This document shows positions 7,359-61,765 of a stretch of 64,000 bases of DNA, piece by piece. Source of the DNA: a virus. Lineage: Duplodnaviria; Heunggongvirae; Uroviricota; Caudoviricetes. Position 1 is the first letter of the stretch. Each line of letters starts with the position of its first letter. Under the pieces are notes generated by a model, which saw only the letters and a list, made by a program, of their open reading frames with translations, was not told the DNA's origin and did no database searches. The stretch covers positions 27,638-91,637 of the IMG/VR virus record IMGVR_UViG_2854395284_000002. The stretch is one strand, 5' to 3'. A program made the translations under genes and the position numbers.

Positions 7359-7568
7359 TAATTTTTGTCCTCCTAAAATTAAAATTTATATTATTGTTAA
7401 ATAAAACAATCTATTTTAACGCCCAATACATGGACGGAACACAGAATTAAATCTATGTTTAACTATGTAAACAGTGATTCAGGGCGCACAAACCCAAGGT
7501 ATGCTGTTAGCCACCCAATTTTATATTCTCTATTGAATTATTTATTTTTTTTGGATTTTTTGACTTGA

Positions 7569-7880: not shown

Positions 7881-7912
7881 CTCCTTCTATATATTCTCTA
7901 CAATCTAATAAT

Positions 7913-8161: not shown

Positions 8162-8190
8162 CTTTTACATATTCTCCATCTTATTCTTTA

Positions 8191-8574: not shown

Positions 8575-8772
8575 TTATTCATTCTCCTTTAACTCTTGAA
8601 ATATTTTAGTTTTCTGCTATAATACCCATACAGGTTATAGCAGCCAAGTTCCACCGCATACTGACTCAACAGCACGGCTATTCCTGGAGTTTATAAAATA
8701 ACTCATGCGGAAGTACTACTTATGTAGTGCGTATAAAACATGAGAAAATAAATCTCAGATTGGAGGTAAATA

Positions 8773-8970
8773 TTGTACATATTAGCAACAATTATATGTG
8801 CAGTTGTTGGACTAATCGCCGTTGGTATGTATTATCATTCCAAAAACCATGCAGTCGATATGATTTGCAGGTACTCATCTGAATTATCAGATAAGAAAGT
8901 GGAATGTATTACCAACATGATTTCCAAACAACATCGGGACATCCCGTTTTTGAAAAAGCTACCAAAATAA
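8773..8970 (+). CDS. small membrane protein (plus-strand, divergent)
   Basis: 65 aa. Hydrophobic N-terminus ILATIICAVVGLIAVGMYY. An RBS GGAGGT lies upstream. It is the only plus-strand gene in the first 50 kb and is bounded by a bidirectional terminator. Confidence 0.4.
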   Translation: MYILATIICAVVGLIAVGMYYHSKNHAVDMICRYSSELSDKKVECITNMISKQHRDIPFLKKLPK

Positions 8971-9022
8971 TCTGTTTATTATTTATTTTCTCCTTTTAAT
9001 CTATAACTTTTTATTATTCATC

Positions 9023-9061
9023 AGGTCGAATTTTGTGTCTAATCACAGATTCGACCTTTTG
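9023..9061. terminator. bidirectional rho-independent terminator hairpin
   Basis: AGGTCGAAT...ATTCGACCT perfect stem followed by TTTT. Placed between convergent genes 8773..8970 (+) and 9085..9570 (-). Confidence 0.5.
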
Positions 9062-9084
9062 TACTTCCACATAAGATTATTTTC

Positions 9085-9570
9085 TTAATCTAAAATTACA
9101 TCCACTGCAGAGATGAATCCATGTACTTTTTTAATTGATTCTTCATCTAACATATATCTTTCGCCCGCTATGTTCATTTCTTTATTAAGGCTATCAATAG
9201 AAAATATTAATTTTTCTTTTGCTATTTCTTTATTCTCTGCACAAACAACAATTCTTTTAAGTGCCAAACTTTTCTTCCATATATTATCAAAGTCATACCA
9301 TTCTCTGTTCGCAATTCCAGTGTAAAAGTCTATTGCCGCTGCATCTTCTTCCTCTTCATCATTTTCTTCTTCCGATTCTCCATACTCACATGTATCGCAA
9401 GTAGAAAAATATTTGTCATGGACTTTACAGCATTCTGGTCTATTATCTTCGTTATAGCGTGTAATAAAATCATAAACTGACGCTTCAAGTTTAATTATTT
9501 TGTCAAATTTTATTCTATCTTTTTCGGATAACTTATTCCACTTTTCTAAAAGTGAATCTACTAATCTCAT
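9085..9570 (-). CDS. hypothetical protein (acidic, Cys cluster CCKVHDKYFSTCDTCEYGE)
   Basis: 161 aa ORF. Confidence 0.45.
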   Translation of the reverse strand: MRLVDSLLEKWNKLSEKDRIKFDKIIKLEASVYDFITRYNEDNRPECCKVHDKYFSTCDTCEYGESEEENDEEEEDAAAIDFYTGIANREWYDFDNIWKKSLALKRIVVCAENKEIAKEKLIFSIDSLNKEMNIAGERYMLDEESIKKVHGFISAVDVILD

Positions 9571-10691: not shown

Positions 10692-11126
10692 CTAATACTG
10701 TCTAAAAGTAAAACCCTCACCACACTCAGTACAGACAACCGATCCAATTTCAACTTCTGCAAATTCTTGAAATTCATACTTGAATTGAACGTTTTTGCAA
10801 TTAAATCTTTTATGTTTATTTACAACGTGCGAATCCATCCATAAATTAATTGTTGATTTTTCATCTTCTGAAATCGGAAATCCTCTCCGTAAATCTTCCT
10901 GCATAGCTTCGCATTTACTTTTCATCATTTGCAGTTCTGAGTCTTTATAAGATTCTTCCATTAATCTTTTATTCTCTTCTCGCAGTCGAGCAATTTCTTC
11001 GTCACGTTTTTTCAATCCATCTTCAACGTTTTTGACAATGTATGAAGTCTGATTTTCTTTATTTACAAGCTGATCTAGAATTTCGTTAATATTCTTACCC
11101 ATGATCTTATTCTCCAATCTCTTCAT
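10692..11126 (-). CDS. coiled-coil protein with C-terminal zinc ribbon
   Basis: 144 aa. Coiled-coil heptads and C-terminal CKNV...CTECGEGF. Confidence 0.45.
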   Translation of the reverse strand: MKRLENKIMGKNINEILDQLVNKENQTSYIVKNVEDGLKKRDEEIARLREENKRLMEESYKDSELQMMKSKCEAMQEDLRRGFPISEDEKSTINLWMDSHVVNKHKRFNCKNVQFKYEFQEFAEVEIGSVVCTECGEGFTFRQY

Positions 11127-11319
11127 TTAGCCATTTAACACAGTCGTTGATCGCATCAGACCTGTAAATAAATTTCTGTCCAGATGGTGACTCCCATACA
11201 AAAGATGATTCAAAAACAAAATAATTAGTTGGAATACCTGCTTTATCTTGTGTCTTTGTAACTAAATATTCCGCTAATCCATCGACCGGCATAATTCTCA
11301 ACCTATCCAAATTTCGCAT
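11107..11319 (-). CDS. hypothetical protein
   Basis: 70 aa ORF overlapping its neighbour by 20 nt. Confidence 0.35.
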   Translation of the reverse strand: MRNLDRLRIMPVDGLAEYLVTKTQDKAGIPTNYFVFESSFVWESPSGQKFIYRSDAINDCVKWLNEEIGE

Positions 11320-11406
11320 CCTTACACCTCCATATTCTCTCTTGTTGTATAATGTTATTTCACTTAATACTCTGCATGGCTATTACACCATACAGAGTAA
11401 AATATA

Positions 11407-12141
11407 TTATTTTTTCTTAGCTGCTTTTAATGAATCTAATTTCTTTTGAAGCTCTTCATCTTTCATCTTTTTATCCAGACGCTTCATCTGAACGTCAATG
11501 GAATTCTTGTAAGCGATTCTTGTACCGTCAGCCTGTTCTTTTGTTTTCTGAACGCCTTCACGAACCTTTTCAAGCATTCTATCTTCTTCTTGACTTGAAG
11601 CGCTTGTGGCAGATTGTAAAGATTTTACGGTTTCTGCAGCCTCGAGTGTGAATACTGCTTTATCCTTTTCTGCTTTTAAAGATTTAATTTCTTCCTGCAG
11701 AGCTGTTAAATTTTCTTTCTGTACATCTCTATTCTCTTTTAATTCTTTCAGAGTTGTCTTAATCGTTTCAATTTTGTCCGTGATTTCCTGCTGTCTTGCA
11801 AGATATACTTTTGCACCTTCGTCATCATTTCTATCAATACAGGATGCAACACTAAGATCCATCTGCATATTCTCTTTCTGCAACTGTCTTAATTGTGTTT
11901 CATAATTCTGGATTTTACCCTCGACCTGGGTATATAAAGAGTTTGTTTTGGTGTAAGTATCTTCCTTCTTCCAAATAATAGAATTATAGTAGGCTTTTGC
12001 TCCATCTGGCGTAGATGCATCATTGCCAATGATTTCATCTGCTGTTCCTGATGCTCTCATTTTTAGTCTCTTACCCGTTTTAGTTGTTGTAAAAAATACA
12101 ACTGCCGCAATCACAAGAATTACGATAATCAATACTGTCAT
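11407..12141 (-). CDS. membrane-anchored coiled-coil protein, PspA/IM30-like (tentative)
   Basis: 244 aa. N-terminal TM helix, then long heptad coiled-coil segments resembling the PspA/Vipp1 layout. Last gene of the Ter-like operon. Confidence 0.35.
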   Translation of the reverse strand: MTVLIIVILVIAAVVFFTTTKTGKRLKMRASGTADEIIGNDASTPDGAKAYYNSIIWKKEDTYTKTNSLYTQVEGKIQNYETQLRQLQKENMQMDLSVASCIDRNDDEGAKVYLARQQEITDKIETIKTTLKELKENRDVQKENLTALQEEIKSLKAEKDKAVFTLEAAETVKSLQSATSASSQEEDRMLEKVREGVQKTKEQADGTRIAYKNSIDVQMKRLDKKMKDEELQKKLDSLKAAKKK

Positions 12142-12143
12142 AG

Positions 12144-12782
12144 TTAATCCCTACCTTCGTCAATATCAAGTCCAAAGTTTTTAAATAGCTCTGTCATGCC
12201 TCCCATATATCCTGATCCAAGAGCCTGGAATTTGAATCCATCACCGTATCTATAAAGTCTACCCATCTCAACGGCATTGAGCTTTTCAAAATTCTCATTT
12301 TCAGAAAGATCATATTCCCACTTTGTTGTCGGATTGTCATAATCACAGATCATCATAGTTGCGTTATTAGCCATTCCAAAATTCTGTAGTCTCTGTACAG
12401 CTCTGAAAATAGTAAGACAAATTGTAAAATCTGTTCTGTCTGACGGAAATGTATCTGCATGAACAATAAAATATTCATCATAATGATGTCCATCAAAAGT
12501 AATTCCCTGAGAATCGTCACCCGTAAGATTGTCTCCAGAATATTCTACCCACGGATATCCACTACCATCACCATATGTATTATAGTTTACAATATCTTTT
12601 GGATAAGCTACTTTTCGATCTGAATTTGTAAGAAATCCGTTAATATCAAAATCAATATCTGATTCACCTGCATAACGATTCTGATCCCAATTCACACCAA
12701 TGAAAAAGTTTTTGATTGCAGTTCCATCTTCTTTTGTCATACTAATTTTCTGATTTTTGCTCATATTAATTACGTTTGCCAT
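12144..12782 (-). CDS. terD: TerD-family stress/tellurite-resistance protein
   Basis: 212 aa. N-terminal MANVINMSKNQKISMTKEDG...IGVNWDQ and DIDFDINGFL match the TerD signature (VSLSKGxNVSLTK ... LGWD ... DLDASAFLL). Confidence 0.75.
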   Translation of the reverse strand: MANVINMSKNQKISMTKEDGTAIKNFFIGVNWDQNRYAGESDIDFDINGFLTNSDRKVAYPKDIVNYNTYGDGSGYPWVEYSGDNLTGDDSQGITFDGHHYDEYFIVHADTFPSDRTDFTICLTIFRAVQRLQNFGMANNATMMICDYDNPTTKWEYDLSENENFEKLNAVEMGRLYRYGDGFKFQALGSGYMGGMTELFKNFGLDIDEGRD

Positions 12783-12801
12783 AATTATGTATTCTCCTTT
12801 T

Positions 12802-13620
12802 TTACTGTTTGTTATTTAGCCAATCTTTGTATGGTCTCAAAAGCTCTGTATATAGTTCTTCGTCAGTCATTCTGTTCATGTTTTTGACTGCGATAAATCC
12901 AGTGTTGTCACATTTTCTACCCTTCATATCATCCAGAGATCTCAGATAACTAAAATTCTCATTTCCAATGCCAACAAACTGTACAAACATATTGTAATTA
13001 GAAAGCTCTTTCACAATTTTATTTGTTTCGTCTGTATCCCAATTTTCACCATCTGTAATAAAAATGATAAATGCTGGAATTGTACTTGGCTCAATATCCT
13101 TATAATAGGAAACAATATCTTTCAAGACTGGAGCGTAATTAGTTCCACCCATACTCATATGAGAATTCATCATAATTTTTCGAACATAGTTCTTATAATT
13201 ATCAATTGTCACTGGTTTCAAAGAATCAAAATCATTTGAAAATAGCCAAGATTCTAACTCCCCATTATCATCAAATTTAAGAGCGATTGGCAAAAGTCTT
13301 GTAATTACATCTTGTACAGATCCGTTTCTAAAAAGATTACCCATACTTCCAGAGTAATCCATAGCGAGCGCAACCCTTGCTTGATGCTTAGTCATATCAA
13401 TTTTGCTTGATTTCGACATATTAATTAGCACATTATTTAAATTTTCTGCTGACTTAGACATATCAATTACAACTTGCTGCGCTGTATTTTCTTCATGTAC
13501 CACAGCGGATGTATTATCCGCCATAGTATTTGTTGTTGTAGTCTTTTTTCCAAAAAGTTTGTCAAATAGTCCCATGATTTTTATTCTCTCCTTTGATAAA
13601 TAATTTTCGAATAACATCAA
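12802..13620 (-). CDS. von Willebrand factor A (vWA) domain protein, TerY-like
   Basis: 272 aa. MIDAS motif AMDYSGSM and TDGE. N-terminal region has a TerD-like strand motif (VIDMSKS..INMSKSSKIDMTK). The true start is possibly the internal Met (MGLFDKLF, about 13575). Confidence 0.65.
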   Translation of the reverse strand: MMLFENYLSKERIKIMGLFDKLFGKKTTTTNTMADNTSAVVHEENTAQQVVIDMSKSAENLNNVLINMSKSSKIDMTKHQARVALAMDYSGSMGNLFRNGSVQDVITRLLPIALKFDDNGELESWLFSNDFDSLKPVTIDNYKNYVRKIMMNSHMSMGGTNYAPVLKDIVSYYKDIEPSTIPAFIIFITDGENWDTDETNKIVKELSNYNMFVQFVGIGNENFSYLRSLDDMKGRKCDNTGFIAVKNMNRMTDEELYTELLRPYKDWLNNKQ

Positions 13621-33793: not shown

Positions 33794-34300
33794 TTAACCC
33801 TCTAATACTTCTTTAGGACAATACACAATCTGTTTACCAGCCTTTTGCGCTTTGCGAATCGTAGACCATACACCACCAGATTTTTTACCATCCCAAATTG
33901 CCAACAATACATCACAGTGGTCAACCATATATTGATCTCTTGCATTGTCGCAACCTTTGTAAAATTCATCAGATAATTCAATCCATTCGTCTGCATATTT
34001 TTTCATGTCATCATATAATGCATGTGACGAATTATAATCTTTACATGGTAGAACACAATGCAATCGCAACGGAATGATTTCGTACACCTTCACTAACATA
34101 GCTACTGTTCCAAATGCAAAATCGCTTCCTGAAGCCATACCACAATAGGTATCTAAATTCTCTCTCTCCAAATAACAAACTTCATACATTTTAAAGAGCT
34201 GTTTTACAATCCATTCTTCAATCTTTTCCCAAGCATCATCCGCTTCGTTTTCTGGAAGTCCAAGTCTTTCAGATCTATGTCCTGTTAATGCTACTTTCAT
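33794..34300 (-). CDS. SLOG-fold protein, YpsA/DUF1273-like (tentative)
   Basis: Likely start MKVALTGHRSERLG (internal Met of the listed 193-aa ORF). Contains GMASGSDFAFG, resembling YpsA N-terminal MKxLxITGYK and the Rossmann-like glycine loop. Confidence 0.4.
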   Translation of the reverse strand: MKVALTGHRSERLGLPENEADDAWEKIEEWIVKQLFKMYEVCYLERENLDTYCGMASGSDFAFGTVAMLVKVYEIIPLRLHCVLPCKDYNSSHALYDDMKKYADEWIELSDEFYKGCDNARDQYMVDHCDVLLAIWDGKKSGGVWSTIRKAQKAGKQIVYCPKEVLEG

Positions 34301-34313
34301 ATATTTTCTCCAA

Positions 34314-35414
34314 TTATAGTTCATAAATATCATTTCTTGTTTCACCGTCAGAATAATAAATATTCCATTCGTCAAATAATTCTTCTAACAATTTCATATC
34401 AACCGAATATTCATTACCGTGTGTGATAGCAATTGATTTCTTATCTCCGAATGTTCCAACATCTTTTTCACATCTATCGTATAATTCTTTTAAGTCTAAC
34501 ATTCCATATCTTAATGTATCCTGATGCGGATTTGGAATATTTGTTTTATCAAACATGTACGGATTGATTAAATATTTGTCGCATTCGCTAGGAAATTTTC
34601 CTGCTCCATGTCTTGTTAAATATGTACGAGATACATAACAGGTTTCAATATTGATATCATCAGCCCAGTTAGTATTTTCAATAATTTTCTTTGGATTTTT
34701 GATACCAGTATTTGATGGTGTAAGATGTGGAAAATAATCTGTATTATTCTGATCCAAAAGAAGCCCTTGTGCTGCTTCAAAGATAATATTATCAAAAACA
34801 TTTAAAAAATCATTTGTTTCCATTTCAACACTATGAATGTTCATAAAATCCCAGTCGTTCCAAAAATGATGAAAAATTCCATCGTCAAGAAATAACTTTT
34901 CCCACTTATAAGACAATGATATCTTCTCTTTTTCAAACTGCTTTATATAATAGTCTCTGATAGAAAAATTAACATTTATTACACCAGCTTTATATCTTTT
35001 TATTGTCTCAAAAATTCCAAGCCCACAGCTACCATGCTTGTCCTTTCCACGGCTTTCTTCAATGATCTGATTCGCCATCATATCCCAAGGTGTCGTAATC
35101 ATACAGTTTTTGTTGATATAAACTTCTGGTCGATATCCTAGATTGGTCAACTCATCATATTCCTGTTTGAAAATAATAGGATTTAAAATAAAATCTTCTG
35201 GCAGATATGTAGCTGCTCCATTAAATGTGCCAGATCCAAAATGATGAAAGACATGTCGAATGCCATCTGGTGACGTAACCGTATGTCCTCGTTGCGCTCC
35301 ACCATTAGAACATATAACAATACTATTTTTCTTTTGAGAAAAATAATTTGTTATCAACCCTTTTCCCTCGTCGCCAAACGATCCACCAATCACAATCTTA
35401 ATGTCTTTCATCAT
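34314..35414 (-). CDS. adenylosuccinate synthetase (PurA) family enzyme, short form; PurZ candidate
   Basis: 366 aa. IVIGGSFGDEGKGLITNYF (PurA P-loop GDEGKGK), NGGAQRGHTV (GGHNAGHT), FHHFGSG. It is about 60-70 aa shorter than canonical PurA. Confidence 0.7.
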   Translation of the reverse strand: MMKDIKIVIGGSFGDEGKGLITNYFSQKKNSIVICSNGGAQRGHTVTSPDGIRHVFHHFGSGTFNGAATYLPEDFILNPIIFKQEYDELTNLGYRPEVYINKNCMITTPWDMMANQIIEESRGKDKHGSCGLGIFETIKRYKAGVINVNFSIRDYYIKQFEKEKISLSYKWEKLFLDDGIFHHFWNDWDFMNIHSVEMETNDFLNVFDNIIFEAAQGLLLDQNNTDYFPHLTPSNTGIKNPKKIIENTNWADDINIETCYVSRTYLTRHGAGKFPSECDKYLINPYMFDKTNIPNPHQDTLRYGMLDLKELYDRCEKDVGTFGDKKSIAITHGNEYSVDMKLLEELFDEWNIYYSDGETRNDIYEL

Positions 35415-35427
35415 TTTGTCTCCTATT

Positions 35428-36309
35428 CTACCAAACGATTTCTCCAGAAGTAGAAATCATTACATTCGTATTTGTCTCATTATTTTCTACTTCACCAACA
35501 ATAATATCAACAATAGCATCTGCGATATTATTCATATTTACATTTCTAAAATGTTTATCATCCATATATTCTTTGAACGAATTTTCAATTGACTCCTGCC
35601 GATAATTATATCCGCCATGTTCAACATTGAGATGATAGAGATTGAATTTCTCCGATGTTTCTTTATACAAATCTCTTGTCTCTACATCTGCCTGTAAACT
35701 ATCCCCTGTAATACTTTTCATACTACATCTAAGGCCTTCTAAAGGAAGATATGGGTTAAGCATTTCGTCTCCCATGGTGATAATGATGCCTTTCCTATTG
35801 CGATTTAAACAATCGAGTTTTGTATGATGAAGACCAAAATACCATGCAGCAGTATAGGATTCAAATCTATTTCCGCCACCGCCAAATTCAAAATACAATT
35901 TATCAAGCTGCTCTGCGATTCTAATGTCAGACTCAAATTGAGACGCCTGGATCGGATATCTATCGTAAGCTAAATCTCCAATACCCATAATCATAAACTC
36001 AACATCTGCAATTTTCTCATACAGCTTTGTCATTACTTCATTTAACGTTTTAGATACTTCAACTGCTGCGTCGCCCATACTACCCGTAACGTCTAGCGCC
36101 AAGATAACAGGTAAAGTATTCGGGTGTTCTGCAGAATCACAGCACTCTCTAATTACATTCTTAGGATCTAAAGCATGATCAAGCGTTACTGCCTTAAACA
36201 TATCCTGGTTAGAATATAAACCTCTGATTTTACCATCGTCTGATACATCAAGACCTTTCGTTGCTGAATAACTTACAAAATCATCTGACTTCCAACTTCC
36301 GCATCCCAT
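35428..36309 (-). CDS. vWA-domain protein (second copy in window)
   Basis: 293 aa. MIDAS LALDVTGSMGD, and ITMGDE later. Confidence 0.65.
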   Translation of the reverse strand: MGCGSWKSDDFVSYSATKGLDVSDDGKIRGLYSNQDMFKAVTLDHALDPKNVIRECCDSAEHPNTLPVILALDVTGSMGDAAVEVSKTLNEVMTKLYEKIADVEFMIMGIGDLAYDRYPIQASQFESDIRIAEQLDKLYFEFGGGGNRFESYTAAWYFGLHHTKLDCLNRNRKGIIITMGDEMLNPYLPLEGLRCSMKSITGDSLQADVETRDLYKETSEKFNLYHLNVEHGGYNYRQESIENSFKEYMDDKHFRNVNMNNIADAIVDIIVGEVENNETNTNVMISTSGEIVW

Positions 36310-36311
36310 AA

Positions 36312-36938
36312 TTATTCTTCCTCCTCTGCTTCATCTGTATCATCTTCGTCACTCATATCAAAATCAAACATTCCATCAAACATTTCAGACATGCCGTTTC
36401 CTCCACCCATCATCATAAAAGGAAGCATTGAGCTCATATTACCAAATGTCATAGAACCATTTGTCCCATCGTTACCATTCATCATCTGAGAAAGCATCAT
36501 ATATTTAAAAATGTTATTTGTTCCTTTTTTACTCTTAAACATATCGTTTCCAAACATGGAAACAATTTTTCCATAAAAATATGTATTTCCCATAAATACA
36601 TGACGTTCTGGAAGAATCATATCTACCGCAGAGTCTTCATAATTAACGACTGTAATTTTATTTTTATCCGCTTCGATGACACACTTTGGTTTACCATTAA
36701 CAAGAATGATGTCCCCTTTTTCAACTTTGTTAGTTGGAATAACAAAGAAAAACTCTTCTCCGATGTCGAATACAAAGTTGTTACAATTTGTAAGTTTTCC
36801 TGTCTTTACGTTATAGGTTTTGTATCCAGTGCTTGTCTTAACAGCGATATCACCATTCATAGACAATCTGCACATTCCGTTTCCTACCTTGCCAAACATA
36901 CCATTTAAAAAATTGTTCATCATATTACTTTTCCTCAT
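36312..36938 (-). CDS. Met/Gly/Asn-rich protein with poly-acidic C-terminus
   Basis: 208 aa. Low-complexity GNGM/MMMGGGNGM segments and a tail DEDDTDEAEEEE. Translationally coupled to the vWA gene. Confidence 0.45.
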   Translation of the reverse strand: MRKSNMMNNFLNGMFGKVGNGMCRLSMNGDIAVKTSTGYKTYNVKTGKLTNCNNFVFDIGEEFFFVIPTNKVEKGDIILVNGKPKCVIEADKNKITVVNYEDSAVDMILPERHVFMGNTYFYGKIVSMFGNDMFKSKKGTNNIFKYMMLSQMMNGNDGTNGSMTFGNMSSMLPFMMMGGGNGMSEMFDGMFDFDMSDEDDTDEAEEEE

Positions 36939-38364: not shown

Positions 38365-39261
38365 TTATTTATTCTCTGTCACAATTCGCCTAAACGTCTC
38401 ATCTGTAGAATCTATCAGATCATATCTTTTATCCATTGGCGCTGTTGAACTTTTTGCAAATTTTCTTTCTACCATGTCAATATAATAAGTAAATTTTCCG
38501 TCATCGCCCATGTAAAATTCTTCCCATTCTTTGTCCGTAAAGAAACGTCGCATATTAAGCTGTTCGATGGCTAGATTGTCAAATGACACAACTTTGAATT
38601 TGTCGTAAATGTTACAGATGTTCTCTTTCAACCACATCTGTCTTACTACAATATTTTCATGATCTTCTGTATACCAATCAGTCCCTCTACGAAGCTGCTT
38701 ATAGCCAAGGATCAGCATCTTCAGATTATTATTCCCTAATGCTTCGATATCAGATGGTTTTAAGATACCATTAATGACATGAATTACTGCATTTGGATAT
38801 TGCTTAATTAGAGAAATAAATTTTTCCGTTGGATTGACAAGTGATACACCAAGACCGTAGATCAGTTTTTCATTAACTAATCTTTTTATCAGATCCTGTT
38901 TTTGTTCAAAATGAATCTGATTTACAGTAATATTCGCAATTACTTTTCGTTCTTTAAGTTTTTGTAGGAATGGAATTAAATCAGGATGTGTAGTGATATC
39001 ACCGCCACCGATTGCTACCTCCTGATATGGATGTAAAGTATCAATAAACTTTTCGTTCATAATATCTCCATGTTTCCCATCAGGAATACTATCTTCATGA
39101 CACATAAGACAATTTCGATCGCAACAATTTGTTATTTTGATATCCATATTTTCTGCAAAATCCGGAATAAACTCATCATCATTTGTTTTTCTGATCTTTG
39201 TCCCATCACTCAATATAAGAGTACGATAATTGCCATTTTTATAAGCTCCTAATAATTCCAT
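38365..39261 (-). CDS. radical SAM domain enzyme
   Basis: 298 aa. CDRNCLMC is a CxxxCxxC 4Fe-4S/SAM motif about 40 aa from the N-terminus. Glycine-rich AIGGGDITTHPD is a SAM-binding-like motif. Confidence 0.6.
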   Translation of the reverse strand: MELLGAYKNGNYRTLILSDGTKIRKTNDDEFIPDFAENMDIKITNCCDRNCLMCHEDSIPDGKHGDIMNEKFIDTLHPYQEVAIGGGDITTHPDLIPFLQKLKERKVIANITVNQIHFEQKQDLIKRLVNEKLIYGLGVSLVNPTEKFISLIKQYPNAVIHVINGILKPSDIEALGNNNLKMLILGYKQLRRGTDWYTEDHENIVVRQMWLKENICNIYDKFKVVSFDNLAIEQLNMRRFFTDKEWEEFYMGDDGKFTYYIDMVERKFAKSSTAPMDKRYDLIDSTDETFRRIVTENK

Positions 39262-39284
39262 TCCTATAATCCTCCTAAATTTTA

Positions 39285-39695
39285 TCAGCCGTCATATCCA
39301 TCATAGCCAAACGCAATAACAGTATCACCATTCTCTGTTGTGAATGATTCTTCAAAAGTTTCCCAATCTTCGCACCATTCATTCCAAAAATAGTCATAAT
39401 CATACCATTTATTTTCATGAAGAAAATCCAAAAGATCTCCTTCTGTGTCGTATGTAAAATTTGGATGATACTTGCTAGATTTTTCAAAGGTGATTGCTTC
39501 TTCTTTTGTATAAAAATGATTTTCTTGAGGTTTGTTGCCATCTGGATAAGCATAGCCACTTCCTCTAAATAGAAATACTTTTCCTTGTTCCCATTTATCA
39601 TAATCGCTTTTATTACACATCACGAGCGAGTGAACCGAGCTACTATTTGTTTCAAATGTTCCTTTTCTAATTTGTGTTTTCATCTTTCCCACCAT
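39285..39695 (-). CDS. hypothetical protein, paralog A (MKTQIRKGTFETNSSSVHSL family)
   Basis: 136 aa. Its N-terminal 25 residues are near-identical to the adjacent gene. Confidence 0.45.
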   Translation of the reverse strand: MVGKMKTQIRKGTFETNSSSVHSLVMCNKSDYDKWEQGKVFLFRGSGYAYPDGNKPQENHFYTKEEAITFEKSSKYHPNFTYDTEGDLLDFLHENKWYDYDYFWNEWCEDWETFEESFTTENGDTVIAFGYDGYDG

Positions 39696-40426
39696 TCCCC
39701 TTCTGGATATTCATGATCAATTGCATTCATATTGATTAAACCTGCTTCTTTCATTCCAGAAAAATAGCATGTTTCATCTCCATCCTGAATTACTACATAT
39801 TTTTTGTTAGAAATAAACTCTTCTAATGTGATATTCTCTTTTTTTAAAAATCCACTAAGGATATCTTCATCCACAGAACCAGTATCTGGAATATTGAATC
39901 TCCAGGATTCATTTTCTGAATCAGTCCAATAATTAATTTCAATTCCATATTGTTCTTCTTTGTCAGAAAGAAACTTGTTTAACTCTTCTTCCGTCATTCC
40001 TTCCTGGTAATAATTGTCTGCATTATATTCTTCGTTATCTTTATTCGGAATATATTTACATTTTTTTGGAAGTTCAATTTTCTTTAATGTCGGCACATAT
40101 TTCTTAACAATTCGTAATAATTCTTTATATGTATCATCATTATATTCTTCAACCAACGAAGCACAAGCATATAGCCATTTATCAGAAAAACTTGCTAATG
40201 CCCTAAATGGAGATCTTCCAAAATATAAATCTTCCTCATATGGTATCCAAATACAATTTTTCTCTCCTGTTTTTGAATCATCCCATAACCACATATCATG
40301 AGTAATTTCTTGTGGAGTATATTTACCTTCATTTTTCATCACGCAAAGCGAATGCATACTTGATGAATTTGATTCAAACACACCCATTCTAATTTGAGTT
40401 TTCATATTTTCTTTTCTCCTATTCAA
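39680..40426 (-). CDS. hypothetical protein, paralog B (MKTQIRMGVFESNSSSMHSL family)
   Basis: 248 aa. Shares the conserved N-terminal block with 39285..39695. Its C-terminus is divergent. Confidence 0.45.
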   Translation of the reverse strand: MNRRKENMKTQIRMGVFESNSSSMHSLCVMKNEGKYTPQEITHDMWLWDDSKTGEKNCIWIPYEEDLYFGRSPFRALASFSDKWLYACASLVEEYNDDTYKELLRIVKKYVPTLKKIELPKKCKYIPNKDNEEYNADNYYQEGMTEEELNKFLSDKEEQYGIEINYWTDSENESWRFNIPDTGSVDEDILSGFLKKENITLEEFISNKKYVVIQDGDETCYFSGMKEAGLINMNAIDHEYPEGEWWER

Positions 40427-41112: not shown

Positions 41113-41907
41113 TCAGTCTAAATATGATTTCAGACCACTTTCAAAATATGGAATTGGTCTTCTCTTGAATCTGTATTTTTCAACCCTTGCATCGATAATA
41201 GCTTTTACTGCAGCATCATCAATTTCACCTGTTCTTGCATACCGATCGAATACAGAATATTTAAATCCAAGAGCGCTTTCATCAGAAGATCCACATAATC
41301 CGTCTGACGGCGTTTTGTCAACCATCTTTTTCAGTAGAATCGTCTCATATCCAATAGCTTTTACTTCCTGTACTGTGAAATCCTTTAATGGTGCAAAGTC
41401 TCCTACTGCATCGCCCCAGCGAGTTTCCCAAGATAAGAGTGTTTCCGAAAGATTGCATGTATTAGCAACTCGTCCATTCATACTCTGTGAAATTGCATAA
41501 AGTGTTGCCATTCTGATTCGAGGAGGCAGATTAATTGATGTCTGTTTTGACCAATGATCACCAATTTGTGGTCTGATTTCGTGCTTTAGCGCAAGAATTG
41601 CTGGATGAATATCTACAGTACAGTATTCAATACCTAAATGTTTAGCAACTTCATAGGCATCTTCAATATCTGTCTGTTCTCCGTCTGGCATGAGCACACC
41701 TAAAACTCTATTCTTTCCAAGAGCTTCCACACAGAGAGCCGCAACAATGCTTGAATCTTTACCCCCTGAAAGACCTACTGTGGCAATACAATCTTTCCCA
41801 TTCTGCTCAAAGAACATTTTAATCCACTCGACAATCTTATTTTTTGTTTCTTTTGCATCAAAAGTATACATATCTATTCTCCTCTCCTTTACTGATTTAA
41901 TTTCCAC
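41113..41907 (-). CDS. nadE: NH3-dependent NAD+ synthetase (PP-loop ATP pyrophosphatase)
   Basis: 264 aa. PP-loop VGLSGGKDSS (SGGxDS). The size and layout match single-domain NadE. Confidence 0.8.
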   Translation of the reverse strand: MEIKSVKERRIDMYTFDAKETKNKIVEWIKMFFEQNGKDCIATVGLSGGKDSSIVAALCVEALGKNRVLGVLMPDGEQTDIEDAYEVAKHLGIEYCTVDIHPAILALKHEIRPQIGDHWSKQTSINLPPRIRMATLYAISQSMNGRVANTCNLSETLLSWETRWGDAVGDFAPLKDFTVQEVKAIGYETILLKKMVDKTPSDGLCGSSDESALGFKYSVFDRYARTGEIDDAAVKAIIDARVEKYRFKRRPIPYFESGLKSYLD

Positions 41908-42407
41908 AGTTCAACATGAGTATCAAGTTCATTAAAAATCTTCTGTATCATTGAATATACTTCGTCCCAATCTGCTCCACCACGATCACAGCCGATCTTA
42001 TATGGCATAGCAATTGTTGCACTAAAATTATTGTTCCTTTCATGTGCTTTCCAACACATAGTTCTAAAACACTTTTCTAATGCTTCCAGAGAAGTATATT
42101 GTTTTCCGTCATATCCATAGTTATCTTGTGCAAAGAAATTACAAATCCACTGTTCATTACTTGGAATTGCAATCGATCCACAGTCGTATCCAATATATTT
42201 TGGCTTGACTGGTACAATTTGTACTTTCCCCAGCATATCCGATGATGCTACCTTTTTATATTCTTCGTATACATGTGGAAATCGCTGTCTGACCTGCAAA
42301 GCCACGCCAGATCCCATCTTTCCCATACAATTTACCTGATGACAAATAAATTTTGCATCCGTATCAAATAAATTTCCTTCGATAATTTCAATCATGATTT
42401 TCTCCAT
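41889..42407 (-). CDS. macro domain protein (ADP-ribose / Appr-1-pp binding or hydrolase)
   Basis: 172 aa. N-terminal IIEGNLFDTDAKFICHQVNCMGKMGSGVALQV matches the macro-domain binding-loop pattern (vNaaN...G.GGGVa.aI). Confidence 0.65.
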   Translation of the reverse strand: MEKIMIEIIEGNLFDTDAKFICHQVNCMGKMGSGVALQVRQRFPHVYEEYKKVASSDMLGKVQIVPVKPKYIGYDCGSIAIPSNEQWICNFFAQDNYGYDGKQYTSLEALEKCFRTMCWKAHERNNNFSATIAMPYKIGCDRGGADWDEVYSMIQKIFNELDTHVELWKLNQ

Positions 42408-43860
42408 TTAGTCTTTCACGAATCTCTTCAAAAGTCTGTTCTTTTACTAATTCTCCATCTTTAAAGACGAGTTTCAGTTCATTTTCTTCTGGCATTGTAT
42501 CTTCTGCATAACCATCATGACACACGAATTTATTTTCTTCTTTTACTACACAGCAAAGTCCTTTATGAGATTTCTTCAGATTATTTTTATCTGTTTTTGG
42601 ATTCTTCTGAATGGTATATTCTTTGCCATCAATTACACAATAAGTGCTCTTCATTGCAAATCCAAAAGTATCTCTTGTTAAGCAAACCATTCCATCTTCT
42701 GGCGTACACATTGCAGAGAAAGAAAACGCACCTACTCCAAAAAGAATCGCATCTGCTGCAAATCCTAATCCTTCAAGCTGTGTCCAAATCTCTTTGATCT
42801 TACTGTACTGACAACCATCTCCGTAAATGATTCCAATCTTTGGATTTAACTCCTTATAACCTTTTGAGTTTACAGTTCCACCAAAAATCTGATATAATTT
42901 CTGAACAGTTTTTACTGAAATTTCAACGATATCGCCGCTATCAGGACGTACAAGGAATTTGCCATTATGCTCTTCGATTTCTTTTCTCAGTTTTGGAAGT
43001 GTTTCGTCAATAAGGTTCCAGTAATCAAATGTATCAGAGACATAACTGAAAGATGTATTCTTATATGTATCAGTCAGTAATCTTCTTAACAGATTTTCTT
43101 CTGTCTCGCATACAGCCAGATTACTGCATACGGTTGCATGTTCCAGGCTAACTGCTCCAATACCAATATGGTTCTTAGCACAATCAGCATCGTACATTTT
43201 ATCAATATACTGAGTTGCAGGAATTGTAGAAGTTTTATTGAAAGATAGCAGCCATGAAGAACTTGCATGAACTCCGTTCTCAATGCCGAGTCCTCTGAAT
43301 CCAAAATCCGCCATAGCCATTGCAGGATTAGCACCATCTGTAGTTTTCTCGTAAAATTCATTTGCAAGTGTTTTATATTTATGACCTACAGTTGCCCAGT
43401 TGCATGTCCCAAAAATAAAAGACTGCATAATGCATTCCAGCCATTGTACCGTCCATGCGAAATCTGGATGTGCGTTACTCATCTCGATACACGGGACTCC
43501 CATTGTTACAACAGATCCTTCTGGAAGAGCTTTGATCTCTACAGGTAAATACTGCAGATCCCATAATTTTTCGATACGTCCAAGATCATAACTCTGAGAA
43601 CCGATCTGATTATCCAGATATTCTTTATATTCTGCAATAACTTCTTTTTTTGGTCTTTTGAAGAAAGTTTCATTTGCTAAATCAATCATATATTCCTTAA
43701 TAAAACCCTGTAATCCAAAGAATACAACTTCATTCAGATTTTTGAACATTGATTTTCTAGGAGTAATATAAGAAGTTAATTTTGTAAGACCCTTTGGAAG
43801 AGCATCAGGATTTGTATTTTTATATGTATCTGCCATCAGCATAAAAGAAATGTTTCTCAT
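42388..43860 (-). CDS. Nampt/NAPRT-family phosphoribosyltransferase (Nampt or Namat-type)
   Basis: About 490 aa from the ATG at 43860 (RBS GGAGGTC; the listed ORF starts further upstream at 43947 and overlaps prs). LMADTYKNTNP and ADFGFRGLGIENG match the Nampt N-terminal TDSYK motif and the FGFRGVSS motif. Confidence 0.75.
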   Translation of the reverse strand: MRNISFMLMADTYKNTNPDALPKGLTKLTSYITPRKSMFKNLNEVVFFGLQGFIKEYMIDLANETFFKRPKKEVIAEYKEYLDNQIGSQSYDLGRIEKLWDLQYLPVEIKALPEGSVVTMGVPCIEMSNAHPDFAWTVQWLECIMQSFIFGTCNWATVGHKYKTLANEFYEKTTDGANPAMAMADFGFRGLGIENGVHASSSWLLSFNKTSTIPATQYIDKMYDADCAKNHIGIGAVSLEHATVCSNLAVCETEENLLRRLLTDTYKNTSFSYVSDTFDYWNLIDETLPKLRKEIEEHNGKFLVRPDSGDIVEISVKTVQKLYQIFGGTVNSKGYKELNPKIGIIYGDGCQYSKIKEIWTQLEGLGFAADAILFGVGAFSFSAMCTPEDGMVCLTRDTFGFAMKSTYCVIDGKEYTIQKNPKTDKNNLKKSHKGLCCVVKEENKFVCHDGYAEDTMPEENELKLVFKDGELVKEQTFEEIRERLNGENHD

Positions 43861-43861
43861 T

Positions 43862-44692
43862 TTAGACCTCCATAACTGTGATTTTATCGTGTTTTCCTGT
43901 GAAAAGACTGTCTGTTGTAAATAATCTTTCAACTGTTCCATCTTCAAGTGATTTGATTAATGTTCCTTTTTCTCTATCAAGAACTGAATTTTCGGTATGT
44001 GATGCATAAGCATAAATTCTATCTACACCACGTTCTTTCAACGCTTTTGCACTATAATATAAAGAACCGCCATATGAAATGATGTCATCAATCATCAAAA
44101 CTTTTTTACCTTTAAGATCAATATCGTTATCTCTGATTTTGAGTCCAAGAATTTTTCCTGTATTCCAATCTCGATTTTTCTCACCATAGCAATACGGAAT
44201 GTCAGAAAACAATCCAGAATATCTTTTCGAACTGCCGGCATCCGGAAAATAAAGAATAAGATTTTCTTTACTAATCTGCTCAATTACTTCATCAATATAT
44301 TCTCTTGGATTAAAAACATATACTCTATTCAAAAGCGCTGCTCCAACATTACTATGAACATCAAGTACCTCTACTCTATCAAATTCGAGCCAATTAATAA
44401 CATCAGAGAACCCTTTTAATGTAAAAACCTCGCCCTGATCATGGATTCTGTCCATTCTGGCATTCGGAAGATAAAACATTGTAAGATCAATTGATTTAAT
44501 ATATGGAAAATTTTTTAAATGTTTTGTAATATAAATCAGCGCTGAAAGTTCTTCTTCTTTCTCATACTTCCATGTAATGTTGTTATATTTCTGATAAAAA
44601 CAATCGTCTAATACGATTCTCTGTGTTCCATCTGGAAAGTGTTCTACTTTTACTTCTTTCCCATTTAAAATGATCATATCTTTATTCTCCAA
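43862..44692 (-). CDS. ribose-phosphate pyrophosphokinase family enzyme (Prs or ADPR-pyrophosphate synthetase Adps type)
   Basis: 276 aa. HFPDGTQ (Prs FSDGE) and the PRPP-binding loop GKKVLMIDDIISYGGSLYYSAKALKERG. Its stop lies 1 nt before the ATG of the Nampt-family gene. Confidence 0.8.
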   Translation of the reverse strand: MENKDMIILNGKEVKVEHFPDGTQRIVLDDCFYQKYNNITWKYEKEEELSALIYITKHLKNFPYIKSIDLTMFYLPNARMDRIHDQGEVFTLKGFSDVINWLEFDRVEVLDVHSNVGAALLNRVYVFNPREYIDEVIEQISKENLILYFPDAGSSKRYSGLFSDIPYCYGEKNRDWNTGKILGLKIRDNDIDLKGKKVLMIDDIISYGGSLYYSAKALKERGVDRIYAYASHTENSVLDREKGTLIKSLEDGTVERLFTTDSLFTGKHDKITVMEV

Positions 44693-45194
44693 TCACATTA
44701 ATCTGGCAGCTTTTCATGGCTTCGAGTGCCGCCTTATGTTTTTCTGGTGTAGATCCCGCGCAACAGCCTGCGTCTACTGTAATTTCCGTATTTGGAAACA
44801 TAGCTTTAAGGACTAATGCATTTGAAATTACACATATATCCGTACACAAACCGACCAGATCGATATCACCATCTCCAATCCATGTCATATTTCTCCACTG
44901 CAAAGTTCCAAAAGTACTTTTGTTTACATATTTGCAGTTAGGAACCTCAATGTCGCTCACAACCTTCCATCCTCTTGTTCCAAAAACACAATGTTTTACT
45001 GGAAGTTTTCTTCCCTCCAGAGTATTTAAGTAATCGTCATAATGCGTATCTCTTGTAAAAATAATTTGATCTCCACGATTATAATACTCTTCAATTTTCT
45101 TTTTCACATTCGGAATAATCGCCTGTGCTTCTTCCGATCCAAGGCTACCATTTACGAAATCATTCTGCACATCTACTACAATTAAAGTTCTCAT
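44682..45194 (-). CDS. isochorismatase-family hydrolase, nicotinamidase (PncA)-like
   Basis: 170 aa. LIVVDVQNDF and GLCTDICV are the catalytic Asp and Cys blocks of PncA-type enzymes. Confidence 0.65.
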   Translation of the reverse strand: MRTLIVVDVQNDFVNGSLGSEEAQAIIPNVKKKIEEYYNRGDQIIFTRDTHYDDYLNTLEGRKLPVKHCVFGTRGWKVVSDIEVPNCKYVNKSTFGTLQWRNMTWIGDGDIDLVGLCTDICVISNALVLKAMFPNTEITVDAGCCAGSTPEKHKAALEAMKSCQINVIGE

Positions 45195-56449: not shown

Positions 56450-57890
56450 GGGTATTTATTTCCATCTCTGATATATTTTGAAAAGGCACTGTGGATCTGT
56501 ATCTATAACTTTACAGCTTTGACTGGTATGAGGTGACTCAGACCACAGCTTTTCGTCTATTACTGTTAATCAGTTTGTTAACGCATCGACGTTTTTATTT
56601 ACGTGATTACACAGCCGAATTCTCTGTGGAAGACAGCAGTGCTCAAAATATTTATCAGGAGGTATAAACCTATGTCAATGTACTTTATTGGAATTGATAT
56701 TTCCAAGTACAAACATGATTGCTGCATCATTTCTGCAGCTGATCAAAAAGTAGTTTCTAAAGTCACAATCAAAAACAATAAAGCCGGCTTTAATGAACTG
56801 CTTACAATCATTCATTCTCTCGCAAATCCTGCAGACATAAGAATAGGGTTTGAATCAACTGCCCATTATGCTCTCAATCTTGAACTCTTCCTTGAAAATT
56901 CTCTCCTAACCTTCATGGAAGTAAATCCTGTTCTCATCAGTGAATACAAGAAATCAAAAACACTTAGGCGTACAAAAACCGACTCTGTTGACTGCGAATC
57001 AATAGCTCGTTGGTTAATGACTGTTGAATACAAACCCCATTCAAAAGGATTTTACCACGCTTACTCTTTAAAGTCATTAACTCGTTTACGCGATAAACTT
57101 ATCCGACAGCGTTCTTTCTATCTTATTAAAATCACAAATGTGTTAGATCATACATTCCCTGAGTTTAAACCATTCTTTAATGAACGCTTATCCAAAACTG
57201 CTCTTTATCTGCTTGAAAACTATGGTTCTGCTGAAAAGATGGCTCGTATGAACTCAGCCTCTTATGAAAAGCTACGTTCCTTATCCCGGGGGAAGTTTTC
57301 ACCACAGCAATTTCTACGACTAAAAGAACTTGCTGCCAATACTGTTGGTGTAAATAACTCTATTTTTGATGTAGAGCTGAACAGTCTTTTATCTTTATAC
57401 AAATCCCTTGTAAAAGAGATTAATACCATTGAAAAAGAAATCAACAAACTAATTGAAGAAGTACATCCTCACTATATGTCAGTTCCTGGAATCGGACCAT
57501 TATCAGCAGCTGTAATCTATTCTGAATACGGCGATATATCTAACTTCACTAATCCAGGACAAATGCTTGCATTTGCTGGAATAGAACCAGGAATCAACGA
57601 ATCTGGTACTGAATCTCACGGAGGTAAGATGGTTAAGCGTGGATCATCCCAGCTCCGCTACACACTTATCAATTGTTGTCTACCGTTAATCCGCTTTGAC
57701 ATGACATTTGCAACTTACTATGCCAAGAAACGCGGAGAAGGCAAACCACATCGAGTAGCCATTACTCATGTAGCCAAAAAGCTTATTAGAGTCATCTACG
57801 CATTGGAGAGGCAAGATATCGACTTTAATGCACAGAAACTTCGTTAATCTCTAGTGGATTAATACTAATTTCTCCCATCTGAAATACGAT
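56450..57890 (+). mobile_element. IS110-family insertion sequence, copy 2 (IS110-group layout; boundaries approximate)
   Basis: Higher-GC block of about 1.4 kb. Roughly 220-nt 5' non-coding region, then the transposase. Palindrome CCATCTGAAATACGATGTATTCAGATGG right after the stop. TTTCTCCCA occurs at both flanks. Confidence 0.55.
56672..57847 (+). CDS. IS110-family transposase/recombinase
   Basis: Start MSMYFIGIDISKYKHDCC with RBS AGGAGG (the listed ORF begins at an upstream GTG, 56603). Typical IS110 N-terminal GIDISK and C-terminal domain. Confidence 0.8.
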   Translation: MSMYFIGIDISKYKHDCCIISAADQKVVSKVTIKNNKAGFNELLTIIHSLANPADIRIGFESTAHYALNLELFLENSLLTFMEVNPVLISEYKKSKTLRRTKTDSVDCESIARWLMTVEYKPHSKGFYHAYSLKSLTRLRDKLIRQRSFYLIKITNVLDHTFPEFKPFFNERLSKTALYLLENYGSAEKMARMNSASYEKLRSLSRGKFSPQQFLRLKELAANTVGVNNSIFDVELNSLLSLYKSLVKEINTIEKEINKLIEEVHPHYMSVPGIGPLSAAVIYSEYGDISNFTNPGQMLAFAGIEPGINESGTESHGGKMVKRGSSQLRYTLINCCLPLIRFDMTFATYYAKKRGEGKPHRVAITHVAKKLIRVIYALERQDIDFNAQKLR

Positions 57891-60724: not shown

Positions 60725-61765
60725 TTAGATAATATTTTTCATGATTTCTACAGATTCTTTTTGTGCTTTTTCTTCCATTCCTCTTACATATAACAGCGTT
60801 GTATTAATTGATGCATGATGTAAATTTTTCTGTACAAGCACAATATCACCCGTTGCGTTGTACAATGTAGTACCATATGTTGCCCTTAGTTTATGTGGAC
60901 TAATTGTTTTTCCTTTTATATTACAAGCATATTTTTTTGTAATATCTGAAATTGCACTTGTTGACAATCTCTTTCCGGTTTTCCCAAGAAATAGAGCAGG
61001 TGTATCGCGTACTGTTACAAGTTGATCTCTGTATGCCAACCATTTCTGCAATTCATCTAAAACTTTTGGAATTAAAATGAATGTATGAACTTTCTTTCCC
61101 TTATCTGTTACAATCAGAGTTCCTTTATCCATATTTAAGTTCTCTATATCCATATTGGATAATGCTGCACAACGTACACCTGTAGAAAGGAAAAGTTTTA
61201 TAACTGCAATATCCCTTTGTGACCAAATGGCTGATGGTTTCCTTGTTTTCCCTGTTAGCTTATGGTCTACATTATAAAGATACGTTTGTGTTTCTTCTGG
61301 AGTCAAATAACTCTTTTCTCTTCTTTCTATTGTTCTCTGTTGCTCTCTCTTTTTTGGCTTCGTAATTTCTTCCATATAATTTTTCGAAAAAATTTTATAT
61401 GCAAACATACATTTTGAAAAAAGTTTTAGTGCAGAATAAACTGCAATTTGATAAGAAGAAACTGTTTCTAATCCATTGTCTTTATCTTGTATTTTTGCCA
61501 TATAGGATACAAAATCTCTCAGTTCAAGATCTTCTTCTTTTTCTTTTCCTGTGAACTGTAGAAATTTTAATACATCACACATGTAAACATATTTTGTCTT
61601 TTCTGATAAATCATGCATATATAAAAGGAAGTCTTGTAGATTCTTAGACTTCCCTTTCATAATGTTTTCGATTTTTCGTTTATATTTAAGTTTTTCTTCC
61701 TCTAAGCCTGTCTGGACTTTTTCATTCATTTTATTCCTCCAATTATAAATCGGCAATCGCAGCAA
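60725..61765 (-). CDS. tyrosine site-specific recombinase/integrase
   Basis: 346 aa. C-terminal catalytic region ISPHKLRATYGTTLYNATGD...LHHASINTTLLYV shows the R...HxxR...Y pattern of XerC/D-type integrases. Confidence 0.75.
   Translation of the reverse strand: MLRLPIYNWRNKMNEKVQTGLEEEKLKYKRKIENIMKGKSKNLQDFLLYMHDLSEKTKYVYMCDVLKFLQFTGKEKEEDLELRDFVSYMAKIQDKDNGLETVSSYQIAVYSALKLFSKCMFAYKIFSKNYMEEITKPKKREQQRTIERREKSYLTPEETQTYLYNVDHKLTGKTRKPSAIWSQRDIAVIKLFLSTGVRCAALSNMDIENLNMDKGTLIVTDKGKKVHTFILIPKVLDELQKWLAYRDQLVTVRDTPALFLGKTGKRLSTSAISDITKKYACNIKGKTISPHKLRATYGTTLYNATGDIVLVQKNLHHASINTTLLYVRGMEEKAQKESVEIMKNII

Follow-up and report, generated by a model that had tools for sequence, protein, structure and literature searches.

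The question raised by this locus is why two phage proteins that share nothing but an N-terminal tail are encoded next to a radical S-adenosylmethionine (rSAM) enzyme. The three genes occupy positions 38365 to 40426 of a 64,000-nucleotide stretch of DNA, here called the window, which comprises positions 27,638 to 91,637 of IMG/VR record IMGVR_UViG_2854395284_000002 (Caudoviricetes). They form an operon whose two components, tail-bearing proteins and rSAM enzyme, co-occur near-obligately in other genomes; one part of the tail is invariant, another part covaries with an N-terminal hairpin of the enzyme, a tail-bearing domain is fused to the enzyme in one phage, and the genes are co-expressed in a cultured relative. 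The favored reading is that the tail docks on the rSAM enzyme and is modified by its radical chemistry, to which we assign a probability of about 0.5, and docking taken by itself appears very likely from the comparison of sequences. A literature search returned no account of the tail motif or of the module.

The three open reading frames (ORFs) are co-directional on the minus strand, and the features of the module are as follows, in the order of transcription.

40416..40420, minus strand: Shine-Dalgarno sequence AGGAG, 10 nt 5' of ATG 40405 (direct sequence reading).
39680..40405, minus strand: large tail-bearing paralog (type 0), with 241 aa when read from ATG 40405; the listed ORF (39680-40426) starts at TTG 40426 and has 248 aa.
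40346..40405, minus strand: N-terminal tail of the large paralog, residues 1-20, MKTQIRMGVFESNSSSMHSL (BLASTP and ortholog tail alignments).
39680..39683, minus strand: ATGA overlap of the large paralog stop and the small paralog start (direct sequence reading).
39285..39683, minus strand: small tail-bearing paralog, type 1, 132 aa from ATG 39683; the listed ORF (39285-39695) has 136 aa.
39624..39683, minus strand: N-terminal tail of the small paralog, residues 1-20, MKTQIRKGTFETNSSSVHSL (BLASTP and ortholog tail alignments).
39300..39362, minus strand: residues 108-128 of the small paralog, FTTENGDTVIAFGYDG, a C-terminal beta-hairpin and the second block conserved in type 1.
38365..39261, minus strand: rSAM enzyme of 298 aa, encoded by the last gene of the module and containing a single [4Fe-4S] motif.
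39184..39243, minus strand: N-terminal hairpin of the rSAM enzyme, residues 7-26, YKNGNYRTLILSDGTKIRKT (conservation, covariation, and alignment with a fusion protein of Salmonella phage Arash).
39184-39207, minus strand: second strand of the rSAM hairpin, residues 19-26, putative docking strand for the tails (covariation and start of the Arash alignment).
39100..39123, minus strand: rSAM cluster motif C47-x3-C51-x2-C54, within NCCDRNCLMC, all three Cys invariant.
38998..39015, minus strand: rSAM A83-I-G-G-G-D88, a GGE-type SAM-binding motif conserved in the family profile.

The operon is tight and is transcribed from the large paralog through the small paralog to the rSAM gene, which therefore lies downstream of the paralogs and not upstream of them, as the earlier note on this sequence had placed it. 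The ATGA overlap suggests translational coupling of the large and small paralogs, 23 nt separate the small paralog from the rSAM start at 39261, and each of the three genes is preceded by a Shine-Dalgarno site, which is AGGAGG for the rSAM gene. A promoter and terminator scan gave no promoter enrichment and no terminator, and the tail motif occurs in no further ORF of the window. According to the ortholog alignments and the DNA, ATG 40405 and ATG 39683 are probably the true starts, and both paralogs would therefore begin exactly with MKTQIR.

The near-identity of the two N-termini, on which the earlier note was built, is confirmed by BLASTP, which aligns the block MKTQIR.G.FE[ST]NSSS.HSL with 20 of 29 residues identical (E = 6e-9) and nothing else. 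An hhalign comparison of the two ortholog groups likewise aligned the 24 N-terminal columns alone (98.6%), which rules out paralog-paralog homology beyond the tail. Residues R6, E11, N13, S14-16, and H18 are invariant across 77 unique tails; among 94 diverse members, R6, N13, S14, S15, S16, and H18 never vary, conservation of F10, E11, and T12 is at least 90%, and the same 94 proteins have a mean column identity of just 9%. The sole glycine of the tail, G8, is not invariant. The E11-x-N13-x-S15 part of the tail coincides with the extended bacterial N-glycosylation sequon, D/E-x-N-x-S/T, probably by chance.

The earlier description of the C-termini as diverging, with proteins of 136 and 248 aa, stands insofar as only the tail aligns between the two; the probable lengths are 132 and 241 aa, and the C-termini are not free to vary, as full-length orthologs are ~60% identical. 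The large paralog has 408 homologs, with ~60% identity over the full length, and the small paralog has 166, whose full-length members show the same level of identity. In the viral loci, type 0, which includes the 241-aa protein of the window, spans 147 to 247 aa, and type 1 spans 95 to 178 aa and has a conserved C-terminal hairpin, FTTxxGxxVVAFGYYG. Across all loci the tail-bearing proteins (clients, below) range from 95 to 330 aa, the smallest having 95 to 100 aa. Type 0 contains the further conserved motifs G(E/D)(F/Y)GW, GYIDH, and GNDN, which type 1 lacks. One alignment row (L166, 8263-8760) is an rSAM fragment and is to be disregarded. Type 1 is the paralog adjoining the rSAM gene in paralog-seeded viral loci, and in a wider set about two-thirds of the rSAM-adjacent paralogs have the type 1 C-terminal motif; the pattern G[DE]x[VI][VI]xFGx[YF]G was found in 75 of 298 unique paralogs.

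No known family could be assigned to the paralogs from the letters alone, and the database searches gave the same outcome: scans of both proteins against Pfam, NCBIfam, and PADLOC, and a sequence search of the PDB, returned no match, and the sole signal against PHROG was that of the tail with a family of unknown function (phrog_28997, E = 0.01). A Pfam scan of the 94 diverse paralogs yielded noise only, with no domain in any member, and tblastn of the large paralog against phage records found no match. AlphaFold2 predicted both folds with a mean pLDDT (predicted local distance difference test score) of 85.8 each and pTM (predicted template modeling) scores of 0.83 and 0.77. Residues 1-13 and 1-14 of the two models fall below 50 although they are the most conserved, the rest exceed 90, the predicted fold starts at the strand beginning with H18, and the tail is not packed on either domain. 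A segment that is conserved yet poorly predicted is typical of one that folds on a partner, which the models would be consistent with. A BFVD structure search with both folds gave no significant neighbor, and the folds matched neither a hydrolase nor an alkaline phosphatase/sulfatase.

The partner that recurs with the tail is the rSAM enzyme. An exhaustive HMMER search with a profile of the small paralog collected 3129 representatives of 50%-identity clusters (E <= 1e-3), and motif-seeded scans gave 80 IMG/VR loci, mostly on contigs of 100 to 216 kb, and 78 genomic loci from gut and rumen Bacillota, Bacteroidota, Spirochaetota, and Candidate Phyla Radiation bacteria, mostly on metagenome-assembled genome (MAG) contigs of phage size. 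The module is also present in Lak megaphages, cyanophage Ma-LMM01, and Salmonella phage Arash, so that the triad which the earlier note proposed to seek in other phages proved widespread. Tail-bearing genes stand in tandem on one strand, in arrays of 1 to ~10 copies, and the rSAM gene is on the same strand in 87 of 88 loci, usually 2 to 60 bp past the last paralog. Among well-flanked arrays, defined as those at least 3 kb from the locus ends, an rSAM gene is adjacent in 126 of 130 (46/46 viral loci, 39/43 genomes, and 41/41 rSAM-seeded loci). Tail-bearing paralogs and the rSAM enzyme are the only families common to all loci. The adjacency is kept in the 541-kb Prevotella megaphage Lak-A2, where the order is reversed and the rSAM gene precedes five paralogs; in a DNA search against phage records, only Lak phages were hit, and they matched through the rSAM gene.

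Some copies of the module are interrupted or altered. In a Blautia obeum prophage-like element (L001-L004), a GIY-YIG homing endonuclease gene (11118-12095) lies between the last paralog and the rSAM gene, and one copy (L002) also has an IS110 transposase there (12138-13427). On the chromosome of Breznakiella homolactica (L128, NZ_CP067089.2), a single tail-bearing gene is followed by an rSAM gene in two overlapping fragments in different frames, which suggests the decay of a copy that resides in a complete bacterial chromosome. In an element of Eubacterium plexicaudatum (L005-L007), a gene for a DHH/DHHA1-like protein (7492-8397) with a GGGH motif and a weak NrnA match overlaps the first paralog (8381-9094) by 17 nt and is itself preceded by RlaP-like and CCA-adding-enzyme-like genes.

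The enzyme has more than 7600 homologs and belongs to a distinct rSAM clade. Its 298 aa and CDRNCLMC cluster had been recognized from the sequence and lie where they were described. An alignment of 30 diverse family members shows no variation at C47, C51, and C54 and no conservation of any other Cys, and there is therefore no auxiliary cluster. The window protein matches phrog_16999 ("Fe-S oxidoreductase") at 2.6e-43 and scores 26.7 bits with PF04055, slightly under the gathering score of 29.5; its homologs Ma-LMM01 gp128 (31.5 bits) and Arash gp146c (51.4 bits) exceed that score, and precomputed PF04055 matches are given for nearly all close homologs. The CxxxCxxC motif, the profile score reached through relatives, and the GGE-type motif together point to membership of the radical SAM superfamily (PF04055). 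What distinguishes the family is a conserved N-terminal hairpin, Y-x-N-G-N-Y...D-G-T-K-I-R, with invariant Y7, N9, G10, and G20 and nearly invariant N11, T21, and K22. Similarity to characterized enzymes is generic: the 30-sequence profile aligned with PDB entries in the cluster/GGE region only (Tes, 4.9e-4; QueE, 0.02; SkfB, 0.025; PqqE, 0.029; viperin, 0.12), and the NCBIfam equivalogs for W-cofactor maturase, MoaA, and HxsC were far under their cut-offs. Grouping with a housekeeping activase such as NrdG or QueE, which the earlier note had named as evidence against its view, was not observed, since NrdG2 scored 20.4 bits against a cut-off of 131.15 and the QueE match was confined to the cluster region. 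SPASM family models reached just 12 bits, with no conserved Cys beyond CxxxCxxC, and Pfam and NCBIfam scans detected no PqqD-like recognition element (RRE) of the kind found in the biosynthesis of ribosomally synthesized and post-translationally modified peptides (RiPPs). In a Paludibacter-associated locus (L142, 3629-5704), an intein-like insert of ~400 aa with C...HN/C boundaries splits the rSAM protein exactly at A-I-G-G-G.

Contact between the tail and the hairpin is suggested by covariation. The consensus tail of each locus was paired with its rSAM enzyme, giving 160 unique pairs, and mutual information was calculated with the average product correction. The top pairs were tail 3 with rSAM 25, tail 2 with rSAM 26, and tail 4 with rSAM 24, which fall on one antiparallel ladder (i + j = 28) with a sum of 1.0, compared with 0.36 for the runner-up among 580 ladders (z = 8). 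The covariation is complementary in charge, with R or K at tail 3 accompanying E or D at rSAM 25 in 101 pairs, T, I, or L at tail 3 accompanying K, R, Y, F, or Q in 52, and only 7 pairs mismatched. On a neighbor-joining tree built without the hairpin columns and scored by Fitch parsimony, 22 charge changes at tail 3 and 18 at rSAM 25 were counted, 16 of which occurred on the same branch, against ~1.2 expected by chance. The charge rule is obeyed by the rSAM-nearest paralog and by all other paralogs, and the variable positions of the tail are more alike within a genome (identity of 0.586) than between genomes (0.462), the domains being unalignable. The window fits the rule, with T3 in both tails and K25 in the rSAM enzyme, and so do two phages outside the covariation set, Ma-LMM01 (I with T) and Arash (L with L).

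These results bear on a different explanation, namely that the paralogs are autonomous enzymes in which E-x-N-S-S-S-x-H is a catalytic or metal-binding motif of their own, completed in type 0 by GYIDH and GNDN, and that the rSAM enzyme acts in the same pathway without touching them. The additional conserved acidic and His motifs of type 0 and the fixed distance of the tail motif from Met1, from which it runs into the first beta-strand, would suit such an enzyme. However, a covariation that is specific in register and complementary in charge is left unexplained if there is no contact, type 1 clients do without the other motifs, and the tail that would supply the active site is packed on neither predicted domain, neither of which matches a hydrolase. 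We therefore consider autonomous catalysis improbable.

Two cultured relatives carry the module. In Microcystis phage Ma-LMM01, gp130 (tail MLSIQVRQGVFETNSSSTHS) and gp129 are encoded along with gp128, an rSAM enzyme ~40% identical by tblastn, and all three genes are assigned to middle class B5, a middle promoter being called before gp130 only (PMC5780444, supplementary file 4). In Salmonella phage Arash, gp146c, a protein of 476 aa annotated as "methyltransferase," is a natural fusion of a tail-bearing domain with the rSAM enzyme. Its residues 1 to ~165 form a type 0 domain (MYLTQIRYGFATNSSSSHS...GYGW...GYIDHES...GGNDN), and residues 170 to 464 are the rSAM part, which matches the family profile in hhalign (99.4%, E = 5e-22) over an alignment that begins at the hairpin strand.

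The tail might instead be a sorting signal to which the rSAM linkage is secondary. From T4 internal proteins IPI-III, the prohead protease cleaves a capsid-targeting sequence of ~10 aa that ends in hydrophobic-x-Glu. The M-K-x-x-I-R-x-G-V-F-E segment has the length and, in V-F-E, the ending of such a signal, and here too otherwise unrelated phage proteins with a shared N-terminus are encoded in tandem. Unlike a capsid-targeting sequence, the tail covaries with the rSAM enzyme and not with head genes, is joined to that enzyme in Arash, and has its most invariant residues past the putative cleavage site. Moreover, gp130 of Ma-LMM01 is a middle gene expressed with replication genes (PMC5780444), and Gp146 of Arash, the relative in which this could be tested, does not appear among the 116 proteins found in particles, which do include its neighbors Gp143, Gp149, Gp151, and Gp156 (PMC10585845). 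A sorting function is thus very improbable.

Taken together, near-obligate co-occurrence, charge-complementary covariation, and the Arash fusion indicate that the N-terminus behaves like a leader recognized by the rSAM enzyme. In the reading that we favor, the locus would be a two-component phage module, made up of one rSAM enzyme and an expandable set of clients with unrelated folded domains and a common tail of ~18 residues. Tail residues 2-9 (K-T-Q-I-R-x-G-V) would serve as the docking leader and pair as an antiparallel beta-strand with rSAM D19-G-T-K-I-R-K-T26, a beta-augmentation whose geometry is deduced from the ladder. Such docking would bring the invariant F10-E-T-N-S-S-S-x-H18, flanked by the docked strand on one side and the client's first strand on the other, to the mouth of the rSAM barrel, where the 5'-deoxyadenosyl radical would most likely abstract a hydrogen from one of N13-S16, and every client would thereby receive an identical post-translational modification. 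We propose that the tail is chemically modified rather than only bound. Its docking positions differ between members and change together with the enzyme, the segment that follows them never varies, and in our view this segment is therefore probably the site of chemistry. Oxidation of a Ser to a carbonyl, as in formylglycine, is one candidate that is compatible with a single-cluster enzyme, and rearrangement and cleavage are other candidates. With one cluster and no conserved extra Cys, thioether, SPASM-type, and Cys-donor epimerase chemistries are unlikely.

The same docking could also serve an unmodified tail. The domains would then be interchangeable specificity or accessory subunits that recruit different targets for the enzyme, whether proteins of the host, RNA, DNA, or small molecules, or that complete its active site through E11, N13, S14-16, and H18. 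All of the grounds for docking apply equally to this arrangement and cannot separate it from docking with modification; a single rSAM enzyme is accompanied by arrays of 1 to ~10 diverse domains, the Arash fusion suggests a 1:1 complex, and the enzyme is without the auxiliary clusters usual in peptide chemistry. On the other hand, the absolute invariance of N-S-S-S-x-H exceeds what a docking peptide needs, the docking positions themselves (2-4 and 7-9) vary and covary, and the minimal clients of 95 to 100 aa have little room for target recognition. We regard an adaptor or subunit role as rather unlikely, while giving it real weight.

Several points weigh against docking followed by modification. 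All of the grounds for contact are computational, and the modification is a prediction. Most characterized peptide-modifying rSAM enzymes have auxiliary clusters and an RRE/PqqD domain, and the present enzyme has neither auxiliary-cluster Cys nor a detectable RRE/PqqD domain. The covalent Arash fusion suits a stoichiometric subunit as well as a substrate, and the type 0 motifs G(E/D)(F/Y)GW, GYIDH, and GNDN could mean that the tail is part of the active site of the paralogs themselves. The low pLDDT of the tail could reflect the shallow alignments used for prediction (31 to 40 sequences), and errors in the neighbor-joining tree and Fitch reconstruction may inflate the number of independent co-change events. 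Finally, 4 of the 43 well-flanked genomic arrays have no rSAM gene within 6 kb. These include L133 and L135, Prevotella and Fibrobacter MAG contigs of high GC content with eight to ten tandem paralogs, one of them with the variant NSSATH; their rSAM partner may lie elsewhere on the 116-kb contig or be missing.

Among known systems, the module may work most like leader-guided rSAM maturation or like a glycyl-radical activase and its client, by analogy. As in the RiPP maturases (PqqE/PqqD-PqqA, MftC/MftB-MftA, CteB, and SuiB), an rSAM enzyme is encoded beside its putative protein substrates, several of which share an N-terminal recognition sequence, and a small N-terminal element of the enzyme most likely binds that sequence by pairing of beta-strands, to which the covariation ladder points here. 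Direct recognition of the leader by the enzyme is supported computationally by that ladder, the 16 co-change branches, and the fusion. The similarity ends with the clients, which are conserved folded proteins rather than short precursors with a variable core and whose invariant part is the N-terminal segment itself, and with the equipment, since the module has no PqqD-like RRE, SPASM/twitch Cys, protease, or exporter, and its enzyme resembles PqqE and SkfB in the generic region alone. The RiPP precursor and maturase logic suggested in the earlier note hence survives in the link between tail and enzyme and fails for the clients and the accessory functions. The classical form of that logic, in which each paralog is a precursor that loses its leader and yields a short core as the final secreted or active peptide, would account for a conserved N-terminus beside an rSAM gene and could draw on the conserved extreme C-terminus of the small paralog, FGYYGYDG. 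With client domains predicted to be folded at a pLDDT above 90, orthologs ~60% identical over their full length, and neither protease, exporter, nor RRE among the universally shared neighbors, it is extremely improbable.

The glycyl-radical activase/client pairs (PflA-PflB/GrcA, NrdG-NrdD, and the T4 NrdG/NrdD pair) resemble the module in that a small single-cluster rSAM enzyme acts on folded proteins encoded nearby, in phages too. They differ in that both module paralogs lack the RVxG[FWY] glycine loop and that the conserved element is N-terminal, and the absence of this loop and the low NrdG2 score rule out assignment to this class. The anaerobic sulfatase-maturating enzyme (anSME) AtsB offers another parallel, an rSAM enzyme that oxidizes one serine of a folded client, within a short conserved motif close to the N-terminus, and the S14...H18 spacing, with a basic residue four after the serine, is reminiscent of the anSME target, the Ser or Cys of (C/S)xPxR, as a lead only. 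The clients have neither the (C/S)x(P/A)xR motif nor a sulfatase fold, and the enzyme has no SPASM or auxiliary clusters; membership of the anSME/sulfatase system was ruled out on the target motif and on the SPASM-type enzyme.

The genes around the module in the window include a complete set for NAD+ salvage just upstream of it (41113-45194, minus strand), which resembles published phage NAD-reconstitution counter-defense pathways.

44682-45194, minus strand: isochorismatase/nicotinamidase-like protein.
43862-44692, minus strand: PRPP-synthetase-like protein.
42388-43947, minus strand: NAMPT/NAPRT-family protein.
41889-42407, minus strand: macro domain protein.
41113-41907, minus strand: NAD synthase NadE.

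Genes of this kind were also seen near tail-bearing genes elsewhere, with a 649-aa NadE inside the array of about ten tail-bearing paralogs in L135 and an NAMPT (Gp157) eleven genes from the fusion protein gp146c in Arash. At 34314-36938 (minus strand), the window encodes a 208-aa protein, a 293-aa protein, and an adenylosuccinate-synthetase-like protein, a trio that recurs downstream of the module in 19 to 24 related loci; the 293-aa member has no Pfam match and contains a D-V-T-G-S motif resembling a metal ion-dependent adhesion site. The trio is followed by a YpsA/SLOG protein (33794-34375). Two transposase-like paralogs (phrog_2199) lie in opposite orientations at 50283-51560 (minus strand) and 56603-57847 (plus strand) with an integrase gene nearby, and the first of them coincides with a rise in GC content to 0.44 from ~0.33. 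One further interval was recorded together with these ORFs and the integrase gene region.

60725-61765, minus strand: interval listed with the transposase-like ORFs and the integrase gene.

The tail-bearing family appears to be one of the larger uncharacterized gene families in large phages of anaerobic gut and rumen communities, and cultured Microcystis and Salmonella phages carry it too. The module, consisting of an rSAM enzyme and a recognized protein client, has a substantial chance of being a genuinely new protein-maturation system. A more specific proposal, which is possible but should be taken as tentative, is a new class of protein maturation in which a single-cluster phage rSAM enzyme captures a universal tag of ~18 residues with a minimal N-terminal hairpin and installs the same radical-derived modification on structurally unrelated effectors; the modification might be, for example, a serine-derived carbonyl or another reactive group within N-S-S-S-x-H, and the tag would then be a portable, enzyme-generated prosthetic group. 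The covariation result provides a precise mutational test, and the Arash fusion and Ma-LMM01 are tractable experimental systems. If the shared tag is modified, leader-guided radical chemistry would extend from the peptides of RiPP pathways to proteins, a new post-translational modification would take place during phage infection, and a compact enzyme/tag pair would become available for protein engineering. The tag would be common to 100-kb gut phages, 540-kb Lak megaphages, cyanophages, and a Salmonella phage.

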